From Clostridia bacterium (lineage in GTDB: Bacteria; Bacillota; Clostridia; Oscillospirales; CAG-382), in the NCBI GenBank assembly GCA_017429165.1, contig JAFRPL010000014.1, positions 130,113 through 194,112 of the forward strand: 64,000 nt of DNA, written 5' to 3'. The translations under genes and the position numbers were made by a program. This document shows, one piece after another, positions 38,115-56,122 of the stretch; position 1 is the stretch's first letter, and each line of letters opens with the position of its first letter. The notes beneath the pieces were generated by a model. That model did not search any database and was not told where the DNA came from. It saw only the letters and a program-made list of their open reading frames with translations.

Positions 38115-38188
38115 TTTTATGAAAAGTGAAACCTTCTCCTTATTTTTTCGTCTTAATAAGTGAAAGCGGCTTTCGAAAGGAACATTTC

Positions 38189-38752
38189 ATGAGCATTCCG
38201 GAATATCTGCCAGACAATGAAATAGTCAAGCTGTTTTACGCGCGCGACGAACGCGCCCTGAGCGAGACCGCCCGCAAATACGGCGCGCTCTTCCGCTCGG
38301 TCGCCAACAATCTGCTGCAAAGCGTTCCCGACGCAGAAGAATGCGAAAACGACGCGTATCTGCGGCTGTGGAACGCCATACCGCCCGCCGAGCCAAAAGA
38401 CCTTGGGGCATACGGCGTGAAGATAGCGCGCAATCTTGCGCTGGACGCGGTAAAAAAGCGCACTGCGCAGAAACGCGGCGGATGCGCGGCGATAGAAGAG
38501 CTCTGCGCGGATTTCGACGACGTCCCCGACACTGCCGCCGACGGGCGCGAGCTCGGGGAACTGCTGGATGAATTCCTGCGCACACAGGAAAAATGCGACC
38601 GCGTGATGTTTGTGCTGCGCTACTTTTACGGCGAGCCGCTCAAAAAGACAGCCGAAAGATGCGGGATCAGCGAAAGCGGAGTCAAGACGCGCCTGTTCCG
38701 CACCCGCCAAAAACTCAAATCCTTTTTAAAGAAGAAGGGAGTAACTGTATGA
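38189..38752 (+). CDS. ECF-type sigma-70 family factor
   Basis: Region 2-like DAEECENDAYLRLWNAIPP...GVKIARNLALDA. Region 4-like CDRVMFVLRYFYGEPLKKTAERCGISESGVKTRLFRTRQKLKSFL. Start at the ATG at 38189. Confidence 0.85.
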   Translation: MSIPEYLPDNEIVKLFYARDERALSETARKYGALFRSVANNLLQSVPDAEECENDAYLRLWNAIPPAEPKDLGAYGVKIARNLALDAVKKRTAQKRGGCAAIEELCADFDDVPDTAADGRELGELLDEFLRTQEKCDRVMFVLRYFYGEPLKKTAERCGISESGVKTRLFRTRQKLKSFLKKKGVTV

Positions 38753-41700
38753 AAAACGAAAAATTCATGCGTTCGGTAGGCGAAATAGGCGACGACCTGC
38801 TGCAGGAAGCCGCCGGATACAAAGCCGAAAGCAAGGCAAAAGCCAATGTCCCGGCGCCGCGCGGCAAACTGTTCCGCCGGGCGGGACTCATCGCCGCCGT
38901 GCTCGCGGTAGTGATAGCCGCCGCGTTCGTGATACCCGCGCTGTTCAGGCAGCCGGATCATGTAAAGATCGAGATCCCGCCCGATAACGGAATCATCTTA
39001 AAAGGCGGCGCCTACAGCACCGACGCGAACGCAAACCTGCCTGAATCGCTCAGAGAAATAGAAGTGCTCGCCAACGGCTCGGGCGAAAAGCTTATGGCGA
39101 CCGATTCCACGCTGGTCGTAAAGACCGCCGCGGAATGCGACACCGAAACGTTTGTCAAATACGTTTCGGTCACCCCCGAACTCCCCATGGCGGTGACCAA
39201 AGTCAGCGCCACCGAATTCCATTTGAAACCGGCGCAGACCGCGTTCGCGCCCAACACGCTTTACCGCGTGACGGTGGGCGATCCGCAAAACCCCGCCGCA
39301 AGCTTTGCGTTCCAGACGGTGAGCGAGCTTGCGATAAAAAACATACTCCCCGGCGCGGGCAGCACCGAAGTTCCCGTGAACACGGGAATAGAAGTCACCT
39401 TCACAGATTCGGTGAAGAACGCGGATTTTTCGGATTATATCACTTTGACGCCCGCGGTCAGCGGCAAATTCATGCTCTACCCCAACGGCAAGACCGTGGC
39501 GTTCATACCCAAAGAGCCGCTGGAATACGATTCGGTCTATACCGTCACCGTTAAAGAAGGGCTCGAATCGATCTCCGGCAAGCCGCTGAATGCCGGCCGC
39601 ACCGCGGTGTTCCGCACGGAGGGTCCGGACGAAGACACGCAGTTCGTAAGCTGGATAACCGCCTCGGCGAACGGTTCGCGCAAGGCGATGTTTACTCCCG
39701 GCGATCCGTATTCGCTCGGAAGCTTCGTGGAATACACCGCGGAAATCTATTACAACGACGTGAGCCGCACGTTTGCCGAGCTTCCCGCCGGTCAGGTCGC
39801 TCTCACCGCGACTTTCTACCGCGCCGTTTCGTGGGATTCCGTAGCGGAAGCCGTTACTCAGCTGCTCAGCAGCGATTTTGCCGCCGATTACGACGAAAAC
39901 GCGCTGCTCGACAAATATTTTGAAAAGGTCGACGAAATAGAGTTCGAGCCCAAAGACGGAGTGTTCAGATACAATTGTTCGTACACGCCCGAAAAAGAAG
40001 GCTTTTACTACACCGTTATTACCGCCCGGAAAAACGGCACAGTCCGCACTTTCCGCGACGTGTTCCAGATCTCCAATCTGCGCCTCGGCGGCACGGCGAT
40101 CGACGGCAAAGCGGTCGTAGTCGTTTCGTACGATAACGGGGCGCGCGTCGCAGGCGCGACCGTAAAAGGCCTGCGCTTCAGCGAAAATGCGTTCTACGAA
40201 AGCGTAAACCGCCCCGAAATGACCGCGTTCGAAATAACGTGCGGCTCCGACGGCACCGCGGTGCTGGAATACGGCGCGGGCAACGCGCTGGCGTTCATCT
40301 ACACCGACGGCGAACGCTCGGCGCTGGCGCTGAAAAGCGTGCCGGGATTCGACGATAACGATTACTATATCAACACGCTTTACACCGACCGCAGCGTGTA
40401 TTTCACCAACGACGCCATCAACGTATGGGGCACGCTTAAAGGCCTTTACGGCGCGGAAGTGCCCGAAGAACTGTATGTCTTCACCGGTTTTTCTTCGGTG
40501 GGGACGCCCGTGACCGTGAGCGAAGACGGTTTCTTCAGCGCGAGCCTGAAAATAGAAAACGTTATGCGCACCTACACCTATGTGCGCGTAGAAGACGCGA
40601 ACGGGATCGTACTCGCCAACACGATGATCAGCGTGACCGAGGAAGAAAAGCCCGTGATCAAAGCGGAAATGAGCTTTGAAAAGCCATATTATTTTTACGG
40701 CGATACGGCGGTCGCCACGATAAGAGTCACGTTCTACGACGGCACGCCCGCCGAAGGTTACGAGGTGAGCGCGCGCTGTTACGAATTCGACGGCGACTAC
40801 GGCAAAGTGACCGACGAAAACGGCTGCGCCACGTTCCGTATAAAGACGGGCAGCGTGAATGCGAACTCGACGAACCCGTGGACTGTCAGCGCTTACGCGT
40901 ATATCAGCGGCGAAGGAGTCGATACGCTGCGCTGCGCGGCGTCGTTCGTGTATTTCCATTCCGATTACGTGCTGGCTTATGAAGGCCGAGTCATAAAGCT
41001 CAACGAGCTCGACCGTTCCAAATGCCCCGAATACGCCGCGGGCAAACCGGTCACCACCAAACCGGGAAACGTCGGAGCGGGATCGCTTGAATACGCCCTT
41101 ATTCAGGTCAAATACAACGTATACACCTATACGGAATACGATATGTATCTCAAACGCAGCGTGGAGCGCACACGCTCCGAACGCATCGAGACCTGCGAAG
41201 AACAGGGCAAACTGTATTTTGAAGACGGCAGGATAGAACTTAAAAAGGTCGATTACGACCCGGAAAAGTACTACTACTATTACAGACTGTACTTCACCGA
41301 CGCGCACGGGCGCTACGAATTCACAGTCCCGGCCCGCGATTACGATGATTCTTATTACACCCGCTATTACACCTATTACGACCGCGCGTATACCGTAGTG
41401 CTGGATAAAGACGCGTACCTTCCGGGCGACACCGTGAACGCCAGGTTCATATACGGTGAAACGAACAACTGCCCCGAACCCGTGCTCGTATTCACCGGCA
41501 CAAGCTATATCAGCCACACGAGCGGCAGCGAAGGCGCGGAACTGTTCACCGAAGAACGGCTTCCCGAAATGCGCGTGACGGCGCTGTTTTTCGACGAAAT
41601 CAGAAAGAGCTGGCGCGCGGCAGGATCGACCGCTTCGTATGATTACGGCAGCGCTGTCGACGGCGAGATAAGCGTCAAGACCGACAAAGACGTCTATAAA

Positions 41701-44016
41701 CCCGGCGACACCGTCACGGTCACCGTGACCGCTCCGCAGCTTGCGGGCGGGAAAGCGCTTATAAGCATTGTGGACGAAGCGTGCTTCGCCTTGGGCGAAA
41801 ACGCGTACAGTCTGCTTAATTACCTCAAATCGAGCGGCTATTTCGCGTCACAGTCTTATATGATCCGTTCTTACAATGCTTACAATGAATATAGGTACCG
41901 CGGTTATATTCAGGGTTATCACACCGGCGGAAGGCTCACTTCGTTTTCCGATATCCCGCTTTCGCGCCTGATCGGCTCGAAACTCGGGGGCAATTCCGAT
42001 TATATATATATCGACGGCAAAATGTATAGGTATGAGTACATGGAAGCAGAAGCGGAAGCGCCCGGAGACGCCGTCAACACGGAAGGCGAAAAATCGTACT
42101 ATGTGCGCGAAAACTTCGCCGACAACCCCGTTTTTGCACAGCTCGAATTCGACGAAAACGGCACGGCGACGCTGGTATTCAAGGTACCGGACAACCTCAC
42201 GACCTGGCGCGTGACCGCGCTGGGCATAAAGAATGCGGAAAAATTCAGCGACATCCGCATTGCGCAGAGCACGGGCGATCCCGTGTGCACGCTGCCGTTC
42301 TTCGTAAAGACCGATATGTGTTCCACCTACGTCAAAGGCGACGACATTGCGCTTTCGGTCCGCTGCTTCGGTACAAAAGCGCAGGGACATGCAAATTATA
42401 CGGCGGTGATATGCGACGCTGAAGGCAGCGAGATAGCGCGCAAAGAGGTTTCCGGCGACACCAAGGCGTTCACCGGAGTCAATTTCGGCAAGCTGGACGC
42501 AGGCGATTACAGTCTCACCGTTTACGCCGACTGCGGCGAATACACCGACGCTTTGAAGAGCACGTTCAGAGTGGTGACTTCCACGCTCGCGGTAGACGCT
42601 GTGGCGACGGTCACCTTGGACGAACTCAAATCCCTTAAAACGCTCGCATACCCCGTGAACGTGGTCGTAAGCGCCGGCGGAAGCGATTCGTTCTATTCCG
42701 GGGTGCTCGGCAGTCTCTATTACTCATACGGCGAACGCGCCGACGCGCTGGCGGCGAAATATGCCGCGGCGGTCATAATGAAAAACGTCTACGGCGGCGA
42801 TTTCGGCATTTCGGATATCGAAAGCAAGTTCGAATCGTTCTGCGGGACGGCCGGCGTCAAGCTTTTGCCTTACGGCGAAGCGGACGTCGAATTGACCGCT
42901 CTCATTGCGGACGTCGCTCCGGAGCTTTTGGCAGGAAAACTCACTGCTGCCGATCTGTTTGCAAACAAGCTTAACCGTAACGTGTTCCAAAGCGACGTGG
43001 AGCTTTGCGCTTCGATATACGGACTCGCCGCGTGCGGCGAACCCGTGCTCGACGTGCTGTACACGGTATCGTCGCAGGCCGGCGACTACAGCGACGAAGC
43101 CAAGTTTTACCTTGCGTGCGGATTTGCCGCAGCGGGCGATTATACCGCCGCGGAAAGCATCTATTCGCAAATAGTCGGCAAACTTGCGGTCGGCGTTGAA
43201 AACGCGATGTACCTCAAAGGCGCCGACGAAGACGCAAAGATCAAGCTCACTTCCCTTGCGCTGGTCGTCGCTTCGCGCATCAGGCGTTCCGACGCGATCA
43301 GATTCGCGCGCTACGCGGTAAGTATCCCGAACACGCACGGCGAAGCCGCGCATCTGGGACTTGCGGCGTTTGCAAAGTATTATCTGCCCGCCGAAAAGCA
43401 GGAACTGCAGAATATAAGCTACACTCTCGCCGACGGCGTTAAGCACGAGTCCGCAATAGGGTTCGGCAAGCAGCTTTGCCTTACGCTTTACAAATCGGAT
43501 CTCGAATCGCTCGTCCTTGAAGGGTGCGAAAACGCCGCGATAACCGTGCGTTACAGCGCGAGCGCCGCCGAGGCCGCGCGCGATTACGGCAAAGGCAGAG
43601 TGAAAGTGCAGAAGACCGTAAGCGGCGACGTGGTGACGATAACCGTTTCGGGTACTTCCAACAGGTACTGGGAATACTTCTCGTTCGACGACGTCATCCC
43701 TTCGGGCGCCCGCCTGCTCTACACTTTCAACCACGGCGACTACGCCAGAGGCAGCAACGCGACCGCGTATATCTACAACCGCGCCGGTCAGCGGATGGAA
43801 GGCCACATTTCGGTATCGGCCCCCGAAAGCTACTTTAAAAACTACCGCAAAGACAACACGGAATTCTGCAAGCAATATTCGTTCTCAGTCACCGTGAGTT
43901 ACCGCATACGCAAGGCGGTCAGCGGCGAGTTCAAGGTGGAACCCGCGGTGGTCGGTTCCGAATACAGCGAAGTATTTGAATTTTCAACAGGCAGTACGAC
44001 CGTTGTTTACGATTGA
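38749..44016 (+). CDS. Giant (1755 aa) single-pass membrane protein with an alpha-2-macroglobulin-like ectodomain; it occupies the anti-sigma position
   Basis: ATGA overlap with the sigma gene. TM is AGLIAAVLAVVIAAAFVIPALF. A bacterial Ig-like domain is present (ILPGAGSTEVPVNTGIEVTF...YTVTVKEGL). The A2M hallmark VPDNLTTWRVTALG is followed by LPFFVKTDM..GDDIALSV. The C-terminal FDDVIPSGARLL completes the pattern. Confidence 0.8.
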   Translation: MKNEKFMRSVGEIGDDLLQEAAGYKAESKAKANVPAPRGKLFRRAGLIAAVLAVVIAAAFVIPALFRQPDHVKIEIPPDNGIILKGGAYSTDANANLPESLREIEVLANGSGEKLMATDSTLVVKTAAECDTETFVKYVSVTPELPMAVTKVSATEFHLKPAQTAFAPNTLYRVTVGDPQNPAASFAFQTVSELAIKNILPGAGSTEVPVNTGIEVTFTDSVKNADFSDYITLTPAVSGKFMLYPNGKTVAFIPKEPLEYDSVYTVTVKEGLESISGKPLNAGRTAVFRTEGPDEDTQFVSWITASANGSRKAMFTPGDPYSLGSFVEYTAEIYYNDVSRTFAELPAGQVALTATFYRAVSWDSVAEAVTQLLSSDFAADYDENALLDKYFEKVDEIEFEPKDGVFRYNCSYTPEKEGFYYTVITARKNGTVRTFRDVFQISNLRLGGTAIDGKAVVVVSYDNGARVAGATVKGLRFSENAFYESVNRPEMTAFEITCGSDGTAVLEYGAGNALAFIYTDGERSALALKSVPGFDDNDYYINTLYTDRSVYFTNDAINVWGTLKGLYGAEVPEELYVFTGFSSVGTPVTVSEDGFFSASLKIENVMRTYTYVRVEDANGIVLANTMISVTEEEKPVIKAEMSFEKPYYFYGDTAVATIRVTFYDGTPAEGYEVSARCYEFDGDYGKVTDENGCATFRIKTGSVNANSTNPWTVSAYAYISGEGVDTLRCAASFVYFHSDYVLAYEGRVIKLNELDRSKCPEYAAGKPVTTKPGNVGAGSLEYALIQVKYNVYTYTEYDMYLKRSVERTRSERIETCEEQGKLYFEDGRIELKKVDYDPEKYYYYYRLYFTDAHGRYEFTVPARDYDDSYYTRYYTYYDRAYTVVLDKDAYLPGDTVNARFIYGETNNCPEPVLVFTGTSYISHTSGSEGAELFTEERLPEMRVTALFFDEIRKSWRAAGSTASYDYGSAVDGEISVKTDKDVYKPGDTVTVTVTAPQLAGGKALISIVDEACFALGENAYSLLNYLKSSGYFASQSYMIRSYNAYNEYRYRGYIQGYHTGGRLTSFSDIPLSRLIGSKLGGNSDYIYIDGKMYRYEYMEAEAEAPGDAVNTEGEKSYYVRENFADNPVFAQLEFDENGTATLVFKVPDNLTTWRVTALGIKNAEKFSDIRIAQSTGDPVCTLPFFVKTDMCSTYVKGDDIALSVRCFGTKAQGHANYTAVICDAEGSEIARKEVSGDTKAFTGVNFGKLDAGDYSLTVYADCGEYTDALKSTFRVVTSTLAVDAVATVTLDELKSLKTLAYPVNVVVSAGGSDSFYSGVLGSLYYSYGERADALAAKYAAAVIMKNVYGGDFGISDIESKFESFCGTAGVKLLPYGEADVELTALIADVAPELLAGKLTAADLFANKLNRNVFQSDVELCASIYGLAACGEPVLDVLYTVSSQAGDYSDEAKFYLACGFAAAGDYTAAESIYSQIVGKLAVGVENAMYLKGADEDAKIKLTSLALVVASRIRRSDAIRFARYAVSIPNTHGEAAHLGLAAFAKYYLPAEKQELQNISYTLADGVKHESAIGFGKQLCLTLYKSDLESLVLEGCENAAITVRYSASAAEAARDYGKGRVKVQKTVSGDVVTITVSGTSNRYWEYFSFDDVIPSGARLLYTFNHGDYARGSNATAYIYNRAGQRMEGHISVSAPESYFKNYRKDNTEFCKQYSFSVTVSYRIRKAVSGEFKVEPAVVGSEYSEVFEFSTGSTTVVYD

Positions 44017-44083: not shown

Positions 44084-44914
44084 TCAGAACGATTCCATAT
44101 CGCTTACGGCTTTTATTTTTTTCATCACCGTGCAGACGATTTTTTCAATAAGCGAACCGGCGGTGAAATCGGCGGGGACGCAATAGTTAACTCTTCCGGA
44201 TGAAAGCAGGTATTTGGCGGTGTTGTCGCCTTTCTTTTCGTTATACACCGCAATGGATTGTCCGCCGTACGCCTTTACCAGCCGCATGCACGGGACGTCG
44301 GTTATGCCGTCGCCGACGTAGATCATATTGCCGAACGGCACGCGGCGGGCGTTTTCGGGCGTGTATTTGTTGAGAAGAGCGGCGCTTTTGCTGTCGATAT
44401 CGAGCACGCCCTTGTTTATGCGGAACAAAAACTGAGTTTTGGCGGTGTAGTTGACCGCCACCTTTGGCCAGCGGATGGATCCGTTTTCGTCGTACATGAA
44501 TTCGCACGCGTAAATGCGCTTGAAATTGCCCGCGCGGGCGATGGAGGTGCCTTCGATTATCTCTTTTATTCCGGAAGAGACTATGTAATGCTCGACGTTC
44601 ACGCCCGTTTCCGCCGCCGCGGCGTTGATGCGCCCGAACCAGGATTCGACTCCTTCGAAATATTCTATTCCTCGCCCGAGTTCAAAGAATTTGTCGCGCG
44701 TTATGCGTATGTTCTTTTCGCCGCATTTCTGCACCATAAGGAACATATACGCAAGTATGCTGTCCATGTGCTGAGTGTCGGTCAGACGATCCACCTCGCC
44801 CCAGAACTCGTCGGGCGAAAGGCCCAGTTCGGGTATGAAACCGTAATCCTGCATATCGCGCGTGGAAAGCGTTTTGTCAAAATCGTACATCAAGGCAATG
44901 ACGGGTCCGCTCAT
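44084..44914 (-). CDS. HAD-superfamily hydrolase
   Basis: Motif I is YDFDKTLS (DxDxT). Motif IV is YVGDGITDVP. Start at MSGPVIAL. Confidence 0.75.
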   Translation of the reverse strand: MSGPVIALMYDFDKTLSTRDMQDYGFIPELGLSPDEFWGEVDRLTDTQHMDSILAYMFLMVQKCGEKNIRITRDKFFELGRGIEYFEGVESWFGRINAAAAETGVNVEHYIVSSGIKEIIEGTSIARAGNFKRIYACEFMYDENGSIRWPKVAVNYTAKTQFLFRINKGVLDIDSKSAALLNKYTPENARRVPFGNMIYVGDGITDVPCMRLVKAYGGQSIAVYNEKKGDNTAKYLLSSGRVNYCVPADFTAGSLIEKIVCTVMKKIKAVSDMESF

Positions 44915-45014
44915 AACGTTATACCTTTCTTTTTTAAAAAACCAGTTGTGAAACGCGTTTATTCTATTATACCAGAAACCGCGCAAATGTCAATAACGCG
45001 TGCGACGATAGATA

Positions 45015-45043
45015 TTGACAACCGCCGCGTTATCTGTTATAAT
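45015..45043 (+). promoter_or_regulatory. Consensus SigA promoter of the partner-switching operon
   Basis: TTGACA at 45015-45020, a 17-nt spacer, TATAAT at 45038-45043. Confidence 0.7.
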
Positions 45044-45126: not shown

Positions 45127-45732
45127 ATGGAATCAACGGTAATCGAAGTCACGAGCAAAGGCGGCGGAATAAGCGAGGCGCTTTCGCTGACCGAAAAACT
45201 GGGTATCGAAAGCGGTATCCGCAAAAAATCCGTGATACATCTGCGGCTGCTCGCCGAAGAGCTGTTCGGCATGCTCCGCAGCATAGCCGGCGACGTAAGC
45301 GCGAACTACTGGATAGAATACAACGGGCCGGATTTTGAACTGCATCTGAAATCGACGGTGGAAATCACCGACAAAATGCGCGACCAGTTCATTTCAGCTT
45401 CCAGCAGCGGCAAAAACGACGCGGCCCGCGGAGTGATGGGCAAGATAAAGGTGATGATAGCGAACTTTATGTTTTCCGCCAGAGAAGCCCTGCCCTACAC
45501 GCTTATCAACACCCCCGCCTCCTATCATATGGGGGCGGCCGCGGGCGAGACGGCGGCTATGTGGTCCATGTCGCTTTACAAGGACGAGATCAAAAAGACC
45601 GGCGGCAAAAAATCCGCCGAAGCATGGGACGAACTTGAAAAATCCATTGTCGCAAATATCGCAGACGACGTGAAAGTGTGTATTCTGGGCGACACTGTGG
45701 AGATAATCATAAACAAAACATTCTGGCACTGA
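45127..45732 (+). CDS. Hypothetical protein; first gene of the partner-switching operon
   Basis: AAAGGAG RBS. 201 aa and soluble. The N-terminal segment IHLRLLAEELFGMLRSIAG vaguely resembles the N-terminal helix of RsbW-like ATPases, but there is no N/G1/G2 box. Confidence 0.6.
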   Translation: MESTVIEVTSKGGGISEALSLTEKLGIESGIRKKSVIHLRLLAEELFGMLRSIAGDVSANYWIEYNGPDFELHLKSTVEITDKMRDQFISASSSGKNDAARGVMGKIKVMIANFMFSAREALPYTLINTPASYHMGAAAGETAAMWSMSLYKDEIKKTGGKKSAEAWDELEKSIVANIADDVKVCILGDTVEIIINKTFWH

Positions 45733-45759: not shown

Positions 45760-46056
45760 ATGACTATCAACAAACAGAAAAACGAAAACGGGCTTTTGAT
45801 ATCGCTCGAAGGAAGACTGGACACCACCACTTCCCCCGCGCTCGAACAGGAGCTTAAAGCATCGCTCGACGGCGTGGATTCGCTGGTGCTTGATTTTGAA
45901 AAACTCGACTACATATCTTCCGCCGGACTTCGCGTGCTGCTTTCGGCTCAGAAAACGATGAACAAGCAGGGCGAAATGAAGATAAAGAACGTAAACGAAA
46001 CGATACTCGAAATATTCGAAGTCACAGGTTTCAACGACATCCTCACCATAGAATAA
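45760..46056 (+). CDS. STAS-domain anti-sigma-factor antagonist (SpoIIAA/RsbV-like)
   Basis: 98 aa. Contains LDFEKLDYISSAGLRVLL with the conserved phosphorylatable Ser context. Confidence 0.85.
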   Translation: MTINKQKNENGLLISLEGRLDTTTSPALEQELKASLDGVDSLVLDFEKLDYISSAGLRVLLSAQKTMNKQGEMKIKNVNETILEIFEVTGFNDILTIE

Positions 46057-46102: not shown

Positions 46103-47740
46103 ATGCAGGGTGACAAGAGCAGCATCTGGAGCAGGTTTCGCTCCGGGATGACTTTCAACATAATAGGCATGATCGTGCTTTTGCTCATAGTATTCGGCAT
46201 AATCGCCGGCGCCGTGGGGCTTGTGAACTTTACCCAGGCGTTCGAAAACGAATACGCCACCACGACCTACCATATGGCGGATACCGCCACCACGCTGATA
46301 AACGGCAGCCATATAGCGGACTATCTGGAAGGCAAGCGCACCATAGAATATATGCAGAGCAAATCGTATCTGGAAGCGTACTGCAAGCGCATAGGCGTTT
46401 CGCTGGTCTACGTCATAATAGTGGATACGAGCGACTACGGCAGGTTCGTTTCGGTATTCAACCACGTCGACAACACCGTGGGCAATACCAGTTACGTCGA
46501 ATGGGAGCTTGGGCACAAGCGCGACACCACCAACGACGAATACCGCGCAAAATATAAAGCGATCTACGAACAGCAATCCGCGTACGAGACCGTCTACCGC
46601 AACAACCCTTCCGACGGCAGCCTTCCGCACATCACCACTATGGTGCCGGTCAAGGATTCCGAAGGTGAAGTGACGGGCATACTCTGCATACAGCGCCCGA
46701 TGAGCGAGCTTATGGGAGCGCGCAGGCCGTACGTGATAGCGGTCGCCTTGGCGACGGTGCTGCTCGCCGCTTTCGTGGCGGTGTTCTACACGTTCTTTAT
46801 GAGACGTCAGTTCGTCAATCCCATTTCGAAAGTCGCTTCGGAAGCGTCGCGTTTTGCGCGCGAAAACACCAAAGGCGAACCGCTCGGCAAAGTCAGCCGC
46901 TTTAAAGAGATATCCGACCTTTCCGAATCCATAGACACCATGGAATCCGACATGGTTAACTATATGCAAGCCATCACCGCTTCGGCCGCCGAAAAAGAGC
47001 GTATCGGCTTTGAGCTTTCGCTCGCCAACACCATTCAGGTGAATTCAATACCCAACGTATTCCCGGCGTTCCCCGAGCGGACCGATTTTGACATTTATGC
47101 TTCCATGACTCCGGCAAAACAGGTGGGCGGCGACTTTTACAATTTCTTCTTCGTGGACGACGATCACCTTGCGATATCCATAGGCGACGTTTCCGGCAAG
47201 GGCATTCCCGCCGCGCTGTTTATGATGGTAACCAACATACTCGTCAGCGACAGGACCCGTATGGGCGGGACGCCGGGCGAGATACTCACTTTTGTCAATC
47301 ATAATATATGCGCGCACAACAAAGCGGATATGTTCGTGACTCTGTGGCTCGGCGTACTGGAGCTTTCCACCGGGACCCTGATCGCCTCAAACGCCGGGCA
47401 CGAATATCCGGTGATAATGCAGCCGGGCGGAAAATACGAAATATTCAAAGACAAACACTGTCTCGCCGTGGGAGCGATGGACAGCATAAAATACAAAGAT
47501 TACACGCTCAAGCTCGAACGCGGCGCCCGTCTCTTCATTTACACCGACGGCGTTCCCGAAACGACGGATCAAGACAACCGGATGTTCGGAATGGAGCGTA
47601 TGGTCGAAACGCTCAACTCCGCAGCGGATGCAGATCCCGAAAACGTGATAACCGGCATGCGCCATGCGGTTGAGCTCTTTGCAAACGGCACCGAACAGTT
47701 CGACGATCTTACGATGCTGTGCATCGAACTCAAAAAGTGA
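46103..47740 (+). CDS. Membrane sensor PP2C (SpoIIE-family) phosphatase with an extracytoplasmic Cache-like domain and HAMP
   Basis: Two TM segments flank a ~180-aa ectodomain. A HAMP-like linker follows. PP2C motifs are GGDFYNFF, IGDVSGKGIPAALFM and YTDGVPE. Confidence 0.85.
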   Translation: MQGDKSSIWSRFRSGMTFNIIGMIVLLLIVFGIIAGAVGLVNFTQAFENEYATTTYHMADTATTLINGSHIADYLEGKRTIEYMQSKSYLEAYCKRIGVSLVYVIIVDTSDYGRFVSVFNHVDNTVGNTSYVEWELGHKRDTTNDEYRAKYKAIYEQQSAYETVYRNNPSDGSLPHITTMVPVKDSEGEVTGILCIQRPMSELMGARRPYVIAVALATVLLAAFVAVFYTFFMRRQFVNPISKVASEASRFARENTKGEPLGKVSRFKEISDLSESIDTMESDMVNYMQAITASAAEKERIGFELSLANTIQVNSIPNVFPAFPERTDFDIYASMTPAKQVGGDFYNFFFVDDDHLAISIGDVSGKGIPAALFMMVTNILVSDRTRMGGTPGEILTFVNHNICAHNKADMFVTLWLGVLELSTGTLIASNAGHEYPVIMQPGGKYEIFKDKHCLAVGAMDSIKYKDYTLKLERGARLFIYTDGVPETTDQDNRMFGMERMVETLNSAADADPENVITGMRHAVELFANGTEQFDDLTMLCIELKK

Positions 47741-47770
47741 TATATTTCCTTATTGAACACGAGGTCCTTT

Positions 47771-49372
47771 ATGGCAGACAACAATAAAAACACGGTCGTT
47801 TACAGGCTTTGCGGAAAGATCGATTCCGGCAACGCGCCGCAGATCGAACAGGAGATCTTCACCGCGCTTGCCGGCAGGGGCGACGTATTGCCCGTACTGG
47901 ATGCCGAAGCGCTCGAATATATTTCGAGCGCGGGGCTGCGGATAATCCTGCGGCTGAAAAAGTCATGCGGCGACGTAAAAATCACAAACGCGAATTCCGA
48001 TATATACGAAATACTGGAAATGACCGGTTTTACCGAGATAATGCAGGTCGAAAAAGCGTACCGCAAAGTGTCGGTCGAAGGCTGCGATGTCGTCGGCGAG
48101 GGTCAGAACGGCAAAGTCTACCGCGTGGACCGCGACAACGTGGTGAAGGTGTATAAAAACGCCGACGCGCTGGAAGACATTAAGCACGAACGCGAAATGG
48201 CAAAACTGGCGCTGATACTGGGCATCCCCACCGCGATTTCGTACGACGTGGTCAAAGTGGGCGAAAGCTACGGTTCGATGTTTGAGCTTCTGGACGCGAG
48301 ATCTTTTTCAAACATACTCGCAAAGGAACCCGAACGGATAGACGAATGCGTATACGAATACGTGAAGATATTAAAGAAACTCCATTCCACGCACGTGCCC
48401 GAAGGCAAACTCCCCCGCTTAAAGGAACGCGTGGTCAAGGCGGCTTCGTATACTAAGGATCAGCTTCCGGAGGGCCTGGGCGACAAGCTTATGCGGATGA
48501 TAGAGGCGATACCCGAGACCGATACCCTGATCCACGGCGACTGCCACACCAAGAATATAGTGATGACGGGCGAAGAAGTCATGCTTATAGACATGGACAC
48601 GCTTTCGGTTGGCCACCCGATATTTGAATTTATGCGAATGTACAATTCGTATATAGGGTATTCGGAATACGACCCACAAGTGCTGGAAGATTTTCAGGGC
48701 TACCCCGCCGAGACGGCGCGCGTTTTCTGGAAAAAAACGCTGTGCGCGTATTTCGGCACGGATGACGAAGATGTGATAAATTCCATAGAAGAAAAGATCC
48801 GCTGCGTTTCGTACGCGTATCTTATCGACTGGTCCCGCCGTCACAAAGCGGCGGAAACCGAGCGCGGCCGTCTTACGTGCGAGCTTTGGAAAAAGCGCAT
48901 TACGGAACTGATACCGCGTCTGGATTCGCTCGACTTTGAAGTGAACGAAGCGACGCGAGACGATCCGAACGAGCTTACGCTGGAAGCCGAAAAAGACAAT
49001 CTGACCCGCGTGCTTGAATTCTTGGACCGGCGGCTTGAAAGCTGCGATTTGCCGCCCAAGGCGCAGATGCAGTTAGACCTTGCGGTGGAAGAGATATTCA
49101 TAAACATAGCGAGCTATGCATATTCCCCCAACAAAGGAAAAGCGACCGTCCGCGTGGAAGTCACGGGCGACCCCGTGACCGTGACGATAACGTTCATAGA
49201 CCGCGGCGTTCCTTACGACCCGCTCAAAAAGACCGATCCCGACGTGACGCTTTCGGCGGACGACCGCGAAATAGGCGGGCTCGGGATATTCCTCGCCAAA
49301 AAGATAATGGACGATATATCTTACGAATACAAAAACGGACAGAATATATTGCGGCTCAAAAAAAAGATTTGA
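47771..49372 (+). CDS. Triple fusion: STAS domain, APH/protein-kinase-like phosphotransferase domain, and RsbW/SpoIIAB-like HATPase domain
   Basis: STAS part: LDAEALEYISSAGLRIIL. Kinase-like part: GEGQNGKVYRV..VKVYK, HGDCHTKNIVM, LIDMDT. HATPase part: N box EEIFINIASYAY, G1 DRGVPYDP, G2 GGLGIFLAKK. Confidence 0.85.
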   Translation: MADNNKNTVVYRLCGKIDSGNAPQIEQEIFTALAGRGDVLPVLDAEALEYISSAGLRIILRLKKSCGDVKITNANSDIYEILEMTGFTEIMQVEKAYRKVSVEGCDVVGEGQNGKVYRVDRDNVVKVYKNADALEDIKHEREMAKLALILGIPTAISYDVVKVGESYGSMFELLDARSFSNILAKEPERIDECVYEYVKILKKLHSTHVPEGKLPRLKERVVKAASYTKDQLPEGLGDKLMRMIEAIPETDTLIHGDCHTKNIVMTGEEVMLIDMDTLSVGHPIFEFMRMYNSYIGYSEYDPQVLEDFQGYPAETARVFWKKTLCAYFGTDDEDVINSIEEKIRCVSYAYLIDWSRRHKAAETERGRLTCELWKKRITELIPRLDSLDFEVNEATRDDPNELTLEAEKDNLTRVLEFLDRRLESCDLPPKAQMQLDLAVEEIFINIASYAYSPNKGKATVRVEVTGDPVTVTITFIDRGVPYDPLKKTDPDVTLSADDREIGGLGIFLAKKIMDDISYEYKNGQNILRLKKKI

Positions 49373-49398: not shown

Positions 49399-50262
49399 GT
49401 GGAAAAGCGCTTGCGCAATATAGACCTGCATATGCACACGACGGTCTCCGACGGGACCGACACGCCCGAAATGCTGATTGGCGCGGTGAAAGCCGCCGGG
49501 ATAGAGGTTTTTTCCGCCACCGATCACGACGCGGTGAAGACCGGGCTCATTATCAGGTCGCTCCTCGAACCCGGCGACCCGGTATTCATTACGGGCGCCG
49601 AGTTTTCGTGCAAGGACGAGGAAGGCAAATATCACATACTCGGCTACGGGTTCGATCCGTCGGGCGCGCCGATGGCCGGACTCGTGAGGAAAGGCCACGC
49701 GCTGAGAATGAAAAAAGTCGCGGCGCGGATCGGCTTTATAAAGAGCGAATTCGGGTTCGAATTCCGTAAAGAAGATATCGACTCGCTGTTTGCGCTGGAC
49801 AACCCGGGAAAGCCGCACATAGCCAACCTTATGGTGAAATACGGCTACGCGACCGACAAGGATACGGCGATGCGCGAATACCTCAACCGCATGCGGTTCA
49901 GAAGCGAATACGTGCGCCCCGAGGAAGCGATATCCGCCGTCACCGCCGCGGGCGGGATCCCCGTGCTGGCGCATCCGTTTTACGGCAGCGGCGACGAACT
50001 CATATTGGGCGACGAGATGGAAGACCGTCTGCGCCGGCTCATGGAAATGGGGCTGCGCGGCGTGGAGGCGTTTTATTCCGGTTTTTCGGCGAAACTGCGC
50101 GAAAACATGCTTGCGCTTGCGCGGAAATACCGCCTTTACGTGACCGCCGGCAGCGACTATCATGGCTCAAACAAGCTCGTAACGCTCGGCGATACCGGCC
50201 TGCGCGACGCCGGAGAAATGCCCGAAGGGCTGATACGTTTTTTGAAAGACGCGGTAAAATGA
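49399..50262 (+). CDS. PHP-domain phosphoesterase
   Basis: Motif IDLHMHTTVSDGT...FSATDHD. AAAGGAG lies upstream of the GTG at 49399. The ORF is open from 49369. Confidence 0.75.
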   Translation: MEKRLRNIDLHMHTTVSDGTDTPEMLIGAVKAAGIEVFSATDHDAVKTGLIIRSLLEPGDPVFITGAEFSCKDEEGKYHILGYGFDPSGAPMAGLVRKGHALRMKKVAARIGFIKSEFGFEFRKEDIDSLFALDNPGKPHIANLMVKYGYATDKDTAMREYLNRMRFRSEYVRPEEAISAVTAAGGIPVLAHPFYGSGDELILGDEMEDRLRRLMEMGLRGVEAFYSGFSAKLRENMLALARKYRLYVTAGSDYHGSNKLVTLGDTGLRDAGEMPEGLIRFLKDAVK

Positions 50263-52982: not shown

Positions 52983-52996
52983 CACAGTAAAAAAAG

Positions 52997-53028
52997 CGCC
53001 GCTTGCAAAAGCAAGCGGCGTTTATATT
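52997..53028. terminator. Bidirectional terminator
   Basis: Stem cgccgcttgc / gcaagcggcg, loop aaaa, with A/T runs on both sides. Confidence 0.85.
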
Positions 53029-53033
53029 ATTAC

Positions 53034-54788
53034 TCAGAGGACGAGCGTAAGGTTGTTCAAGCCGAGAGAATTGACGTAATTTGCGCTTTTGACCATCTTC
53101 ATGACCATTCTAATGCCTATATGCGCGGTCGGCTCGTCGACGCGGTGGAGTTCCATATACTTTACGGGATCGAAATCCGCGCAGTTGTCGCGTATACGTA
53201 TGACGCGCCTGCCGCCTTTATAAACCAGGCGGATATCTATGCTGTGCTCCTTGCCGTCGCCTGCAAACCCGTGGCGCACGATATTGACCGCCATTTCTTC
53301 TATGCAAAGCGCTAAAAGAGAGCTGTTTCGCCGCGTTTCGCCGTAGCGGATACAGAATTCCTGCGCTTTTTCCGAAGCTTCAACGACACGCTCTATGGAA
53401 TCGGCGGAGGTTTCAAAGCAGTCGTTTTGAGCGGCGCCGAATTCCGCGGGCAGGAACGCGAACGTTTCGGCGGAAAACGAGACGCGGCGGCTTTTTATGA
53501 ATACGATGGCCGCCATTATGATAAGCGTAAGCGTTTCGCCGCACAGGAACGAAAGCCAAACGCCCGTGACTCCCCAAAAGCGTGAAAGCAGAAACGCAAA
53601 CGCCGCGACAAGGGCGAAGTTCTGCATAAGCGAAATCGCCTGCGTGAGCCACGCCTTGTTCACGCCCTGATAGTAGTTCTTGAACGTGGTGTTCAGCGCG
53701 CCGGGCAGCAGCGAAAGCGAAAACAGCCGCACGCCCAGGACCGCCATATCCGCCGCGGCGGGCGCTTCGGTAAGGAACAGCGCCACGAGCGCAGGCGCGG
53801 AAAAGAACACCGCGACAGTCAGCAGCGAAACGAGCAGCGCCGAATAGAAAGACATGGTCTTGACGAGCGAGCACAGTTCGGATCTGTCCTCGTCGCTGTA
53901 AAAGATGGAAGAAAGCATAAGCGCGACCGAAGCGACGCCCGAACCCACGCAGTAGCAGATATTGCCCACGGTGGAAATGACCGAATACGCAGCCACGGCG
54001 TTGTTTTTGCCCACGTCCAGCAGTATGGAGTTCATAACGAACACCATAAGGACAAGACTTACCTGATTCACGACCGTAGGTACGCCGTATTTGAGCAGCG
54101 TGCCGCAGGTCTTAGCCTTGACATAAGCAAAATTGAAACGGAACACGCATTTCTTTTTGAAGAAATACACAAGCCCTATGAAAAACGCTATGTAATAGCT
54201 CACGCTCGAAGCGACGCCCATGCCGAACGTGCCCTGCTTTACCACGAAGACGTTGAGGATATCGAGCGCCACGTCCGCCGCGGTCATAGCCGCCACGGCT
54301 GTGATGAGGCGCGTCCTGTTGCCGGTGATCTGCATATACGGCACCATTATCTGTGCAAATATGAACGCCGGCGCGCCGATTATGAATCCTCGCAGGTAGT
54401 CGCGCGTCAAAAAGAAAACGTCGTTGCCGGGTACGGGATTGCCCGCGCCGAGCAGGGTGCAGATAGGCGAGGAAAAAAGTATGACCAGAACCGAACCGGC
54501 GACCGAAATGACGAACGCCAGAAACACCGATACCGAAAAGCACGCGTTGGTGCCTTTCATGTCGCCGCCGCCCATCGTCTTGCCGCACATCACCTGTATG
54601 CCGGCCGAAAGCGTCGTCCCGACCGCCGCGAAAACGAGCAGCACGGGAGTGGCGAGCCCGTAAGCGGTCATTGAATCGACGCCCAGAAAGCGGCCTATCA
54701 TGATGCTGTCCACGAGCATACACAGCATGACGGTCATCGACGATATTATCTGTGCGGAAAGCATTTGCCTGAAAACTCTTTTTATCAT
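53034..54788 (-). CDS. MATE-family efflux transporter fused to a C-terminal cytoplasmic RsbW-like HATPase domain
   Basis: A 12-TM MATE-like body (MIKRVFRQMLSAQIISSMT...). The ~130-aa tail has the N box CIEEMAVNIVRHGF and the G1-like motif IRDNCADFDP. The G2 box is degenerate (AHIGIRMVMKM). Confidence 0.8.
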   Translation of the reverse strand: MIKRVFRQMLSAQIISSMTVMLCMLVDSIMIGRFLGVDSMTAYGLATPVLLVFAAVGTTLSAGIQVMCGKTMGGGDMKGTNACFSVSVFLAFVISVAGSVLVILFSSPICTLLGAGNPVPGNDVFFLTRDYLRGFIIGAPAFIFAQIMVPYMQITGNRTRLITAVAAMTAADVALDILNVFVVKQGTFGMGVASSVSYYIAFFIGLVYFFKKKCVFRFNFAYVKAKTCGTLLKYGVPTVVNQVSLVLMVFVMNSILLDVGKNNAVAAYSVISTVGNICYCVGSGVASVALMLSSIFYSDEDRSELCSLVKTMSFYSALLVSLLTVAVFFSAPALVALFLTEAPAAADMAVLGVRLFSLSLLPGALNTTFKNYYQGVNKAWLTQAISLMQNFALVAAFAFLLSRFWGVTGVWLSFLCGETLTLIIMAAIVFIKSRRVSFSAETFAFLPAEFGAAQNDCFETSADSIERVVEASEKAQEFCIRYGETRRNSSLLALCIEEMAVNIVRHGFAGDGKEHSIDIRLVYKGGRRVIRIRDNCADFDPVKYMELHRVDEPTAHIGIRMVMKMVKSANYVNSLGLNNLTLVL

Positions 54789-54997
54789 ATATAAGGCTCC
54801 GTTTTTTGATGAATATATTGTACCATATAACTGCGGTTTTTTCAAGTGATAAATTTCGCACGTTCGACAGTTTTCGCTTGCTGTGAAAAACGGCAAGAAG
54901 GCAAAAAACCACTTGTAGAATCATTTGACGTATGCTATAATGATACGGGCGAAAACCGTTTTGCCGAATGATCTCCTAAAAGGACGGTATATGCGAT

Positions 54998-56122
54998 ATG
55001 AAAAAGATCATCACACTCATCCTTGCGCTGCTGCTCTGTTCCGCCGCGCTGTTTGCCTGCGGCAAGGCTGGCGCGTCCGGGCTTCGCGGCTCGGCGGTCA
55101 CGCACGAGACCAAGTTCGGCGGCGTATATTTTGACAAGACCATTGAAGAATTCAACGCTTTGGGATTTGAATACGGCGACAGCGTGAACATAACGTTTTC
55201 CAACGGAAAATCGCTCGCAGACATCCCCTATTACAACGGTTATTACGTCGATATAGGCTATCCGCTGCTGGTGGCGTATCCCGGGTACCCGTATATAGAG
55301 GCCATGGTCAACTACGGCGACGATCTGTTCGTGACTCTGGAGCTCGACGAAACCTGCACCGCGGATATCGAGCTGTGCGAGCGCGGCAAGTATGCGGGCG
55401 TGCAGAAAGCGCGCGACATACAGTATTCCGACGAGCAGGGCGATCAGAGCGACGAAGTGTTCGCCAATTTCCGCGCCGTCAACATGGGAGAGTTGAAAAA
55501 AGACGTGCTCTACCGTTCGGCTTCGCCCTGCAACGACGAGCACAACCGCGCCGCCGTCACCGACAGGCTCGCCGCCGGAGCGAAAATAGGATTTATGCTC
55601 AACCTTTCGGATAACGAAAGCGATATACTCGGCTTCATCGCCGCGGACACGTTCGATTCGCCTTATTTCCTTTCGCTTTTCAACAGCGGCAACGTGGCGC
55701 CGCTGGGGCTGAGCGCCAACTTCAAAAGTGCGTCTTTCGGCGAAAAGCTGGCGCGCGGTCTCGAAGCGGTCGCGCAGAGCGAAGGCCCGGTGCTGATCCA
55801 TTGCGTGGAAGGTAAAGACCGCACCGGCTACGTGCTGATGCTGCTCGAAGCGCTGTGCGGCGCTTCTTACGGCGAGATAGTCGACGACTATATGCTCACC
55901 TACGATAACTACTACGGCATAAACAAGACGAGCGACCGCGAACGGTACGATATTATCAAAGAAAAGAATCTTGACGTAATGATATCCTATATGACCGGCA
56001 CGCCGGCGTCGGAAGGGTTCGAAAACGCCGACCTGGCAAAGAGCGCCCGCGAGCTGCTCGTAAGAATTGGTATGACCGAAGAATCGGTGAACAGACTGTA
56101 TTCAAAACTGACCGGAGAATAG
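54998..56122 (+). CDS. Lipoprotein with a CX5R tyrosine/dual-specificity phosphatase domain (Y_phosphatase3-like)
   Basis: Lipobox ALFAC|GK. Active site is IHCVEGKDRTGYV. An N-terminal ~130-aa beta-rich domain has unclear identity. Confidence 0.75.
   Translation: MKKIITLILALLLCSAALFACGKAGASGLRGSAVTHETKFGGVYFDKTIEEFNALGFEYGDSVNITFSNGKSLADIPYYNGYYVDIGYPLLVAYPGYPYIEAMVNYGDDLFVTLELDETCTADIELCERGKYAGVQKARDIQYSDEQGDQSDEVFANFRAVNMGELKKDVLYRSASPCNDEHNRAAVTDRLAAGAKIGFMLNLSDNESDILGFIAADTFDSPYFLSLFNSGNVAPLGLSANFKSASFGEKLARGLEAVAQSEGPVLIHCVEGKDRTGYVLMLLEALCGASYGEIVDDYMLTYDNYYGINKTSDRERYDIIKEKNLDVMISYMTGTPASEGFENADLAKSARELLVRIGMTEESVNRLYSKLTGE

Follow-up and report, generated by a model that had tools for sequence, protein, structure and literature searches.

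What might a single polypeptide control if it joins a STAS domain, a kinase-like phosphotransferase domain and an RsbW-like switch kinase domain? The question is raised by a gene in a 64,000-nucleotide stretch of DNA from a Clostridia bacterium (GenBank assembly GCA_017429165.1, contig JAFRPL010000014.1, forward-strand positions 130,113 to 194,112), hereafter called the window and numbered from its first letter. The gene (47771..49372, + strand, stop codon included) is translated without interruption into a 533-residue fusion of STAS, APH-like kinase and GHKL domains. A preliminary description of the locus had suggested either intramolecular control or a two-kinase logic gate acting on STAS domains. 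Here we find that the fusion is genuine and that this signalling protein is widely conserved among Clostridia of the rumen and gut. We tentatively propose that it belongs to a partner-switching module that would work without a sigma factor and whose output would be the APH-like kinase, the second kinase probably replacing the sigma factor in that role.

The fusion protein is real and widely conserved

A GAGG Shine-Dalgarno sequence lies 6 nt 5' of the ATG at 47771; a longer frame starting from a TTG at 47753 is also listed and is not needed. The three Pfam matches of the 533-residue protein, to STAS, APH (PF01636) and HATPase_c_2 (PF13581), are far beyond chance. An identical protein (P0001) is present on 5–8 independent contigs, and each of the best 120 homologue clusters shows these three Pfam domains, in proteins of 516–537 residues that are 60–87% identical to it. 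When one genome per GTDB species was scanned, relatives of the protein were found to be encoded in 408 genomes. The best 80 of these are almost all rumen or gut metagenome-assembled genomes of Clostridia, among them Oscillospiraceae, Ruminococcus, Lachnospiraceae and some labelled Solobacterium. In Clostridiales bacterium UBA1206 (locus L004), the orthologue is 87% identical and of equal length, and the locus is fully syntenic.

The STAS-APH-GHKL order occurs in 186 of the homologues compared. We aligned 185 of them, all longer than 500 residues, and counts out of 185 given below refer to these three-domain proteins, which range from 45 to 100% identity. The catalytic residues of all three domains are kept in at least 183 of them, in line with the earlier claim that both phosphotransfer domains have complete catalytic motifs. 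All motifs quoted in the preliminary description were located in the protein: EYISSAGLRIIL (residues 49–60), GEGQNGKVY (109–117), VKVYK (125–129), HGDCHTKNIVM (255–265) and LIDMDT (272–277). A gene-model artefact, in which a frameshift or a missed stop had merged two or three genes, has nothing in its favour and can safely be dismissed in view of the open frame, the identical copies on independent contigs, the syntenic L004 locus, the 120 clusters with the same domains, the 185 aligned homologues and the 408 species genomes.

An AlphaFold2 (AF2) model built with 31 homologues had a mean predicted local distance difference test score (pLDDT) of 82.5 and a predicted template modelling score (pTM) of 0.61. 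Pfam profiles, folds and conservation in the 185 homologues agree on three genuine domains in one polypeptide. A flexible linker at residues ~391–400 (48941..48970, + strand) separates the last two; its pLDDT is below 50 at residues 392–398, and it is variable in the homologue alignment. Databases label members of the fusion family only generically, as 'ATP-binding protein', 'anti-sigma factor antagonist' or 'TIGR02172 family', and look-ups of clusters of two-domain relatives yielded no functional name.

The STAS and GHKL domains are intact

The STAS domain covers residues 3–95 (47777..48055, + strand; Pfam STAS, 2.7e-12). It scored 46.9 bits in Pfam STAS, over the cut-off of 22.6, and 53.1 bits in TIGR00377, slightly under the cut-off of 53.45; its sequence matches in the PDB are SpoIIAA and RsbV. 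Both of these proteins are phosphorylated on a serine residue. In HMMER and MAFFT alignments, Ser53 of the fusion (47927–47929, + strand), located in the motif YISSAGLR, stands opposite the serine of RsbV YMDSTGLG and SpoIIAA FMDSSGLG, and this alignment with the phospho-serine of both proteins makes it the predicted phospho-acceptor. S52, S53, G55 and R57 are present in 185/185 three-domain proteins. Among 149 representatives of 50%-identity clusters, most of them two-domain proteins, S53 was kept in 143 of 144 and R57 in 144 of 144. From the genomic association described below, we predict that S53 is phosphorylated by the GHKL domain and dephosphorylated by a PP2C phosphatase.

The C-terminal domain (residues 401–533; 48971..49369, + strand) is of the RsbW/SpoIIAB-type GHKL class, with a Pfam PF13581 (HATPase_c_2) match of 1.2e-22 over residues 405–531 and a score of 80.7 bits against a cut-off of 27.4. 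Its PDB match by sequence is RsbW (6m36_A, 6.8e-5), and by fold it is SpoIIAB (1tid, 1til, 1l0o), with TM-scores on the target of 0.74–0.77 in Foldseek. The RsbW and SpoIIAB equivalog models gave 18–37 bits, below their cut-offs of 135–155. The N box (E440–N445, 49088–49105), G1 (D477–G479, 49199–49207) and G2 (G502–G505, 49274–49285), all on the + strand, are intact and conserved in 183–185 of the 185 proteins, as the preliminary description had held for this protein. E440, N445 and G479 are invariant, E441, D477, G502 and G505 occur in 184, and G503 in 183.

The central domain resembles small-molecule kinases

Between the STAS and GHKL domains lies an APH/ELK-fold kinase-like domain (residues ~100–390; 48068..48940, + strand), which matches Pfam APH (PF01636) with an E-value of 1.3e-18 over residues 108–310 and scores 68.1 bits against a cut-off of 23.2. 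In a Foldseek search of the AF2 model against the PDB, its closest structures were Cph001 (8i85), 5-methylthioribose (MTR) kinase (2pu8), APH(2'') and APH(3'), with E-values of 4e-8 to 1e-6 and a probability of 1.0. The Pfam profile and the Foldseek result thus establish the similarity to a kinase fold on which the preliminary description depended. Sequence identity to solved APH-fold structures is 12–17%, and the best solved relative by sequence is the CotS-family protein YtaA.

The catalytic set of the fold is complete. It comprises, all on the + strand, a Gly-rich loop (G109–Y117, 48095–48121), the ATP-binding lysine K126 (48146–48148), the catalytic loop HGDxHxKN (residues 255–262, 48533–48556) and the Mg-binding aspartate in DMD (residues 274–276, 48590–48598). 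K126, E140 of helix C, H255, D257 and N262 are found in 185/185 three-domain proteins, and D274 and D276 in 184/185. This conservation reaches far into the family: among distant 50%-cluster representatives, K126 is kept in 145 of 146, D257 in 145, and H255 and N262 in 146, and the residues of the Lys, Glu, HxDxxxxN and Mg-Asp set are each present in 138–146 of ~146.

The best NCBIfam match of the domain is TIGR02172 (1.1e-32), with 113.7 bits against a cut-off of 228.2; the protein is therefore related to this curated family but lies outside it, although one source names a homologue 'TIGR02172 family'. Two other assignments were considered and rejected. The domain is not that of an aminoglycoside-resistance gene, since the only resistance-family match was to APH(6)-I, which scored 13.4 bits where the cut-off is 325. 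Nor is it a Hanks-type Ser/Thr kinase, since a Pfam search gave no Pkinase (PF00069) match to the fusion protein at E ≤ 1, and the segment after D274 (IDMDTLSVGHP) follows the APH/choline-kinase pattern and is not an activation loop.

The same parts recur in one operon and in alternative fusions

The fusion gene stands fourth in a tightly spaced run of eight genes on the same strand, in the order orf201, STAS, PP2C, fusion, PHP, DUF218, M15 peptidase and alpha/beta hydrolase. The second gene (45760..46056, + strand) encodes a free-standing STAS protein of 98 residues (Pfam STAS, 2.2e-17; TIGR00377, 75.8 bits, over the cut-off). It is a paralogue of the fused STAS domain and, as described before, carries the same YISSAGLR site, here within DYISSAGLRVLL. 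Directly upstream of the fusion gene, the third gene (46103..47740, + strand) encodes a SpoIIE-type PP2C of 545 residues (Pfam SpoIIE, 2.3e-45; weak dCache_1 match). Hydrophobic segments at residues ~17–43 and ~207–232 flank an extracytoplasmic region, the PP2C domain occupies residues 352–543, and the N-terminus shows weak similarity to SiaA and WalK. The adjacent PP2C of the preliminary description thus belongs, with the free STAS, to the operon of the fusion, although it is a membrane-anchored sensor phosphatase and not a soluble one. Directly downstream of the fusion gene lies a gene for a PHP-family phosphoesterase of the TrpH/YciV-like type (49399..50262, + strand; Pfam PHP, 1.1e-5). Its NCBIfam matches, 3',5'-nucleoside bisphosphate phosphatase (109.8 bits) and RNase RNM (97 bits), are both under the cut-offs.

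The gene context was compared in 53 homologous loci that extend for at least 3 kb to either side, counting genes within 5 kb of the fusion gene. A free STAS gene was present in 46/53, a PP2C gene in 39/53 (directly upstream in 31) and a PHP gene in 32/53 (directly downstream in 28). No sigma factor gene was found in the operon or in nine annotated homologous contexts. Classical sigma-factor control was rejected for want of a linked sigma gene: an extracytoplasmic function (ECF) sigma gene of the window (38126–38752) belongs to a separate unit, in which it is paired with a 1807-residue protein, and between this unit and the STAS operon lies a divergent HAD gene with the promoter that serves it.

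HMMER, run exhaustively over 1.84 billion cluster representatives, returned 854 matches at E ≤ 1e-30. Proteins of the three-domain form make up essentially two clusters at 50% identity; most strong matches are ~380–400 residues long and cover query residues 1–389, which comprise STAS and the APH-like domain without GHKL. Because the STAS motif and the kinase residues are near invariant in distant proteins, we take the two-domain STAS-APH protein (~390 residues) to be the widespread, ancestral and constrained unit. The GHKL domain would accordingly be a mobile add-on, one of several alternative domains attached at the C- or N-terminal end of this core. It is C-terminal in the fusion gene and N-terminal in P0123 (locus L087, 8001–9578). 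In a sister lineage of nine clusters (P0122 and P0423–P0430; 696–783 residues, 56–69% mutual identity), a PHP domain takes the place of GHKL, as in L094 (8001–10109), and these STAS-APH-PHP fusions can be read as a Rosetta-stone link from the kinase-like domain to the downstream PHP gene. Other architectures are HD-CE-STAS-APH, STAS-APH-PolyA_pol head, Na+/H+ exchanger-STAS-APH and STAS-APH-YezG-like (P0171, P0173, P0187 and P0150). In a neighbour-joining tree of the STAS-APH region, a crude one, the C-terminal-GHKL proteins form a crown clade in which the monophyletic PHP fusions and a few two-domain proteins are nested, and the N-terminal-GHKL protein is placed elsewhere; this placement indicates at least two independent GHKL fusions.

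The order of the genes varies along with the fusions. The layout STAS, PP2C, STAS-APH-GHKL is that of the window and of loci L004–L083; in L092 and L093, a free STAS and a two-domain STAS-APH protein are accompanied by a PP2C-GHKL fusion; in L087, GHKL-STAS-APH is followed by a free STAS. The free STAS thus also stands beside two-domain and N-terminal-GHKL relatives. In L084–L086 (7291–9599; human gut, a 479-member cluster), the order is HD_4 (RelA/SpoT-type hydrolase), STAS-APH and free STAS, and in L096 (6575–8998) the STAS-APH gene is followed by an 807-residue fusion of SpoIIE (PP2C) and Y_phosphatase3. The PP2C-GHKL proteins of L092 and L093 (9157–11026) are multi-pass membrane proteins of 619–622 residues. 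They are encoded downstream of a peptidase-C39 ABC exporter pair, and a radical-SAM gene lies nearby in L093. L095 (8001–11001) contains tandem STAS-APH paralogues of 392 and 393 residues with a small bPH_1 protein between them.

A proposed partner switch with a kinase as output

The same four parts, namely free STAS, STAS-APH, PP2C and GHKL, recur with their links reshuffled, which is a classic signature of cooperating proteins. Together with the lack of a linked sigma factor, this recurrence leads us to read them as a partner-switching module targeting the APH-like kinase, an assignment that we hold tentatively. In such a module, the GHKL domain would be both the STAS kinase and the switch partner: it would bind unphosphorylated STAS, its own or the free protein or both, and phosphorylate Ser53. 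The membrane PP2C would remove the phosphate from Ser53 upon a signal from the envelope or from outside the cell. The phosphorylation state of STAS and the docking of GHKL would then gate the APH-like kinase. Gating by the STAS state is suggested because only a few residues join this domain to the kinase N-lobe; in the AF2 model, STAS ends at residue ~95, and residues 107–117 already form the first kinase strand and the Gly-rich loop. The kinase itself would most probably act not on a protein but on a small molecule or nucleotide-like compound, a substrate class favoured by the structural neighbours, the lack of a Hanks-kinase signal and the repeated association with phosphohydrolases (PHP, HD_4 and HD-CE). 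The PHP phosphoesterase would work in the same pathway, reversing the kinase reaction or processing its product. The intramolecular control suggested in the preliminary description is compatible with this model.

Several observations weigh against the proposal. The AF2 arrangement of the domains relative to one another is only moderately confident, at the pTM given above. The two-domain relatives in L084–L086 and L095 have no GHKL or PP2C gene within 8 kb and nevertheless keep Ser53; their STAS kinase is either encoded elsewhere or the APH-like domain itself. The PHP, DUF218 and M15 neighbours may partly reflect inherited synteny in one bacterial lineage rather than function; in the case of PHP, the independent fusions speak against this reading. 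Finally, the APH fold includes some protein kinases (YihE/SrkA and the CotS family), and the substrate class cannot be read from the fold alone.

In a first alternative, the APH-like domain would itself be a protein kinase and would also phosphorylate STAS, its own or the free protein; two unrelated kinases, one of the ELK fold and one of the GHKL type, would then determine the phosphorylation of STAS together with a single PP2C, and the real output would lie elsewhere, for example in orf201 or in a MATE transporter with a GHKL-like domain. We consider this unlikely. It could explain why Ser53 and YISSAGLR are near invariant in two-domain proteins (143/144), some of which, in L084–L086 and L095, are those without a neighbouring GHKL gene, and it is consistent with the direct fusion of STAS to the kinase N-lobe across the family. 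The central domain also has weak matches to protein-kinase-type APH-fold families, PRK11768 (0.00044) and CotS (0.00051), and PknD, which has a protein-kinase fold, phosphorylates the STAS protein Rv0516c (PMC1847690). However, the closest structures are all small-molecule kinases, the protein has no Pkinase match, and IDMDTLSVGHP after the Mg-binding Asp is an APH/choline-kinase pattern. GHKL accompanies STAS-APH in at least three layouts and would be redundant if the APH-like domain did the same job; in particular, the PP2C-GHKL protein beside two-domain STAS-APH in L092 and L093 suggests that the APH-like domain is no substitute for the STAS kinase. The recurrent fusion to, or adjacency of, PHP, HD_4 and HD-CE would also better fit a metabolite or nucleotide substrate. 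The two-kinase logic gate of the preliminary description therefore found no direct support in these small-molecule-kinase neighbours, the missing Pkinase match and the separate PP2C-GHKL proteins.

A second alternative, to which we assign a low probability, is that the APH-like domain is a sensor of ATP or a small ligand that would report the metabolic state to the attached STAS and GHKL domains. Its output would be protein–protein control of the MATE transporter, the PHP enzyme or orf201. Kinase-like components of partner-switching systems often act by binding and not by catalysis, which speaks for such a role, and two genes of the locus could supply binding partners. The first is a MATE transporter gene (53034..54896, − strand; Pfam MatE, 8.5e-20; HATPase_c_2, 1.3e-8) whose product ends in a GHKL-like domain that keeps the N box (EEMxxN) and has degenerate G1 (D-x-C) and G2 (HIGIR) motifs, so that it probably does not bind ATP normally. 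The gene repeatedly adjoins the fusion gene on either side (L009, L012, L013, L025, L033, L048 and L055). The transporter is a probable accessory partner of the STAS-APH module and may be regulated by STAS binding. The second is orf201 (45127..45732, + strand), the first gene of the operon, whose family was not recognised: Pfam, NCBIfam and PDB sequence searches with its product gave no match. It has conserved counterparts in 16 loci, often with a STAS gene on either side. Hhalign detected a weak similarity to the GHKL domain (E 0.014), and a low-confidence single-sequence AF2 model showed a GHKL-like order of strands and helices, with UsfX and SpoIIAB as top Foldseek matches that were not significant (E 0.26–0.5). 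Judging from this model, orf201 may be a degenerate GHKL/anti-sigma-like pseudokinase that lacks the N, G1 and G2 boxes and has a long helical insert; its resemblance to a motif-less GHKL domain is what makes it a possible binding partner. Against the sensor role, K126, E140, H255, D257, N262 and D274 are conserved in the 185 three-domain and ~145 distant proteins, which is the pattern of an active enzyme. Moreover, MATE-GHKL and orf201 were found in only 17/53 and 13/53 of the loci, respectively.

A further possibility extends the partner-switching proposal. The STAS-APH module could be a signalling enzyme that has so far gone unrecognised, a kinase gated by a partner switch that would make a phosphorylated small molecule or nucleotide, with dedicated hydrolases removing the product. 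The product might be of the nucleoside 3',5'-bisphosphate type or another phospho-messenger. Candidate hydrolases are the TrpH-like PHP protein, encoded by the next gene here and fused in nine clusters, the HD_4 protein of the adjacent gene in L084–L086, and the fused HD-CE domain. We see this extension as a long shot.

Other features of the locus

A consensus sigma-70-type promoter of the operon (45015..45043, + strand; TTGACA-17-TATAAT with an extended −10 TG) matched the consensus at 12/12 positions, a pattern match only. It is one of two perfect sigma-70 promoters that stand back to back at 44966–45043, each with TTGACA, TATAAT and an extended −10 TG and with spacers of 16 and 17 nt, and that serve the HAD hydrolase gene (44084–44986, − strand) and the STAS operon (+ strand). 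At the other end, a bidirectional intrinsic terminator (52994..53023; 13-bp stem, eight of its pairs GC, with T tracts on the two strands) closes the operon and the convergent MATE gene.

Upstream, positions 38126–44016 (+ strand) hold the ECF sigma gene followed by an overlapping open reading frame of 1807 residues. The counterpart of this frame in L091 has 1755 residues, a Big_5 match and faint or weak alpha-2-macroglobulin-like matches. On the far side of the MATE-GHKL gene, and divergent from it, positions 54998–56122 (+ strand) encode a Y_phosphatase3 (PF13350) protein with a lipoprotein-type signal sequence (…LLLCSAALFACGK). Y_phosphatase3 is also the domain fused to PP2C beside the STAS-APH gene in L096; the link between the two may be coincidental.

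A role in anti-phage defence was considered for the HD-CE, YezG-like and PolyA_pol domains and the weak TCAD9 matches in relatives, and it found no support. PADLOC gave no match for any module component or variant, and the context is a housekeeping-like operon.

Significance

Partner-switching modules of STAS, GHKL and PP2C proteins are best known as sigma-factor switches, and direct control of an enzyme has been characterised in few of them, such as SiaABCD and All4160. The STAS-APH family would add a kinase to the controlled outputs. Domain reshuffling in partner-switching systems is already familiar; the apparent novelty lies in the STAS-APH/ELK-kinase module and in the joining of this module to the switch kinase. 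Searches of the literature found nothing on TIGR02172, on PF01740 together with PF01636, or on STAS with HATPase_c_2 and aminoglycoside phosphotransferase, and a broader search returned general partner-switching papers only, none on a STAS-APH module. The family is not rare: relatives are encoded in the 408 species-level genomes noted above, and the underlying two-domain STAS-APH protein makes up hundreds of 50%-identity clusters in metagenomes.

The natural fusion series, with GHKL added at either end, PHP added, or PP2C-GHKL as a neighbour, provides a ready interaction map. The invariant residues S53, K126, D257 and N445 are clean mutational handles that make the system testable. Identifying the substrate of the APH-like kinase might bring to light a new metabolite or messenger under regulation in gut anaerobes that are abundant and for the most part uncultured. 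If the product were indeed a messenger, gut and rumen Clostridia would possess a new on/off messenger system under the command of a membrane PP2C sensor.

Comparison with known systems

The central domain shares its fold and catalytic set with APH/ELK-fold small-molecule kinases, such as aminoglycoside and capreomycin phosphotransferases and 5-methylthioribose kinase, and with the uncharacterised TIGR02172 family. It differs from them in scoring under every family cut-off, in being always preceded by a STAS domain and in giving no indication of a resistance role.

The remaining parts belong to the same three protein families as the switches of Bacillus, RsbW-RsbV and SpoIIAB-SpoIIAA with their PP2C phosphatases (RsbU/RsbP and SpoIIE). 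As in those systems, the STAS serine is at the position of RsbV Ser56 and SpoIIAA Ser58, the GHKL domain is SpoIIAB-like, and a SpoIIE-type PP2C is encoded in the operon. In contrast to them, the operon contains no sigma factor, STAS and GHKL are in one chain with a kinase-like domain of ~290 residues between them, and the motif is YISSAGLR, not DS[ST]GLG. Against the RsbW, SpoIIAB and SpoIIAA equivalog models, all scores stay far under the cut-offs. By profile, motif and fold, the STAS and GHKL parts fall within the SpoIIAA/RsbV and RsbW/SpoIIAB superfamilies, and neither is the equivalog of a named protein.

Mycobacterium tuberculosis Rv1364c (PAS-PP2C-GHKL-STAS) combines a GHKL kinase with the STAS domain on which it acts: the cis kinase phosphorylates this STAS domain and the PP2C domain reverses the reaction (PMC9138534, PMC7693655). 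The statement of the preliminary description that no characterised example is known hence stands for the STAS-APH-like part but not for GHKL and STAS in one chain. In Rv1364c, the PP2C is part of the same polypeptide, an APH-like domain is absent, the kinase precedes STAS and the signal passes to SigF, whereas the PP2C here is a separate membrane protein, the order is STAS-APH-GHKL, and no sigma factor is linked.

Two other systems resemble the proposed module in being partner-switch-like with an enzyme, not a sigma factor, as output. In Anabaena, the PP2C HenR, together with two kinases, controls the STAS-glycosyltransferase All4160 by way of its STAS phospho-site (bioRxiv 10.64898/2026.04.08.717354), and there, as proposed here, STAS is fused to the regulated enzyme. 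In Pseudomonas aeruginosa SiaABCD, the controlled enzyme is a diguanylate cyclase, on which a membrane PP2C and a kinase act, according to the summary in PMC9239204; the PP2C of the operon is weakly similar to SiaA. The module differs from both in that the regulated enzyme would be a predicted APH/ELK-fold kinase, in that the candidate STAS kinase is in the same chain, and in being known from its sequence. Collectively, Rv1364c, All4160 and SiaABCD provide precedents for each logical step of the proposed module.

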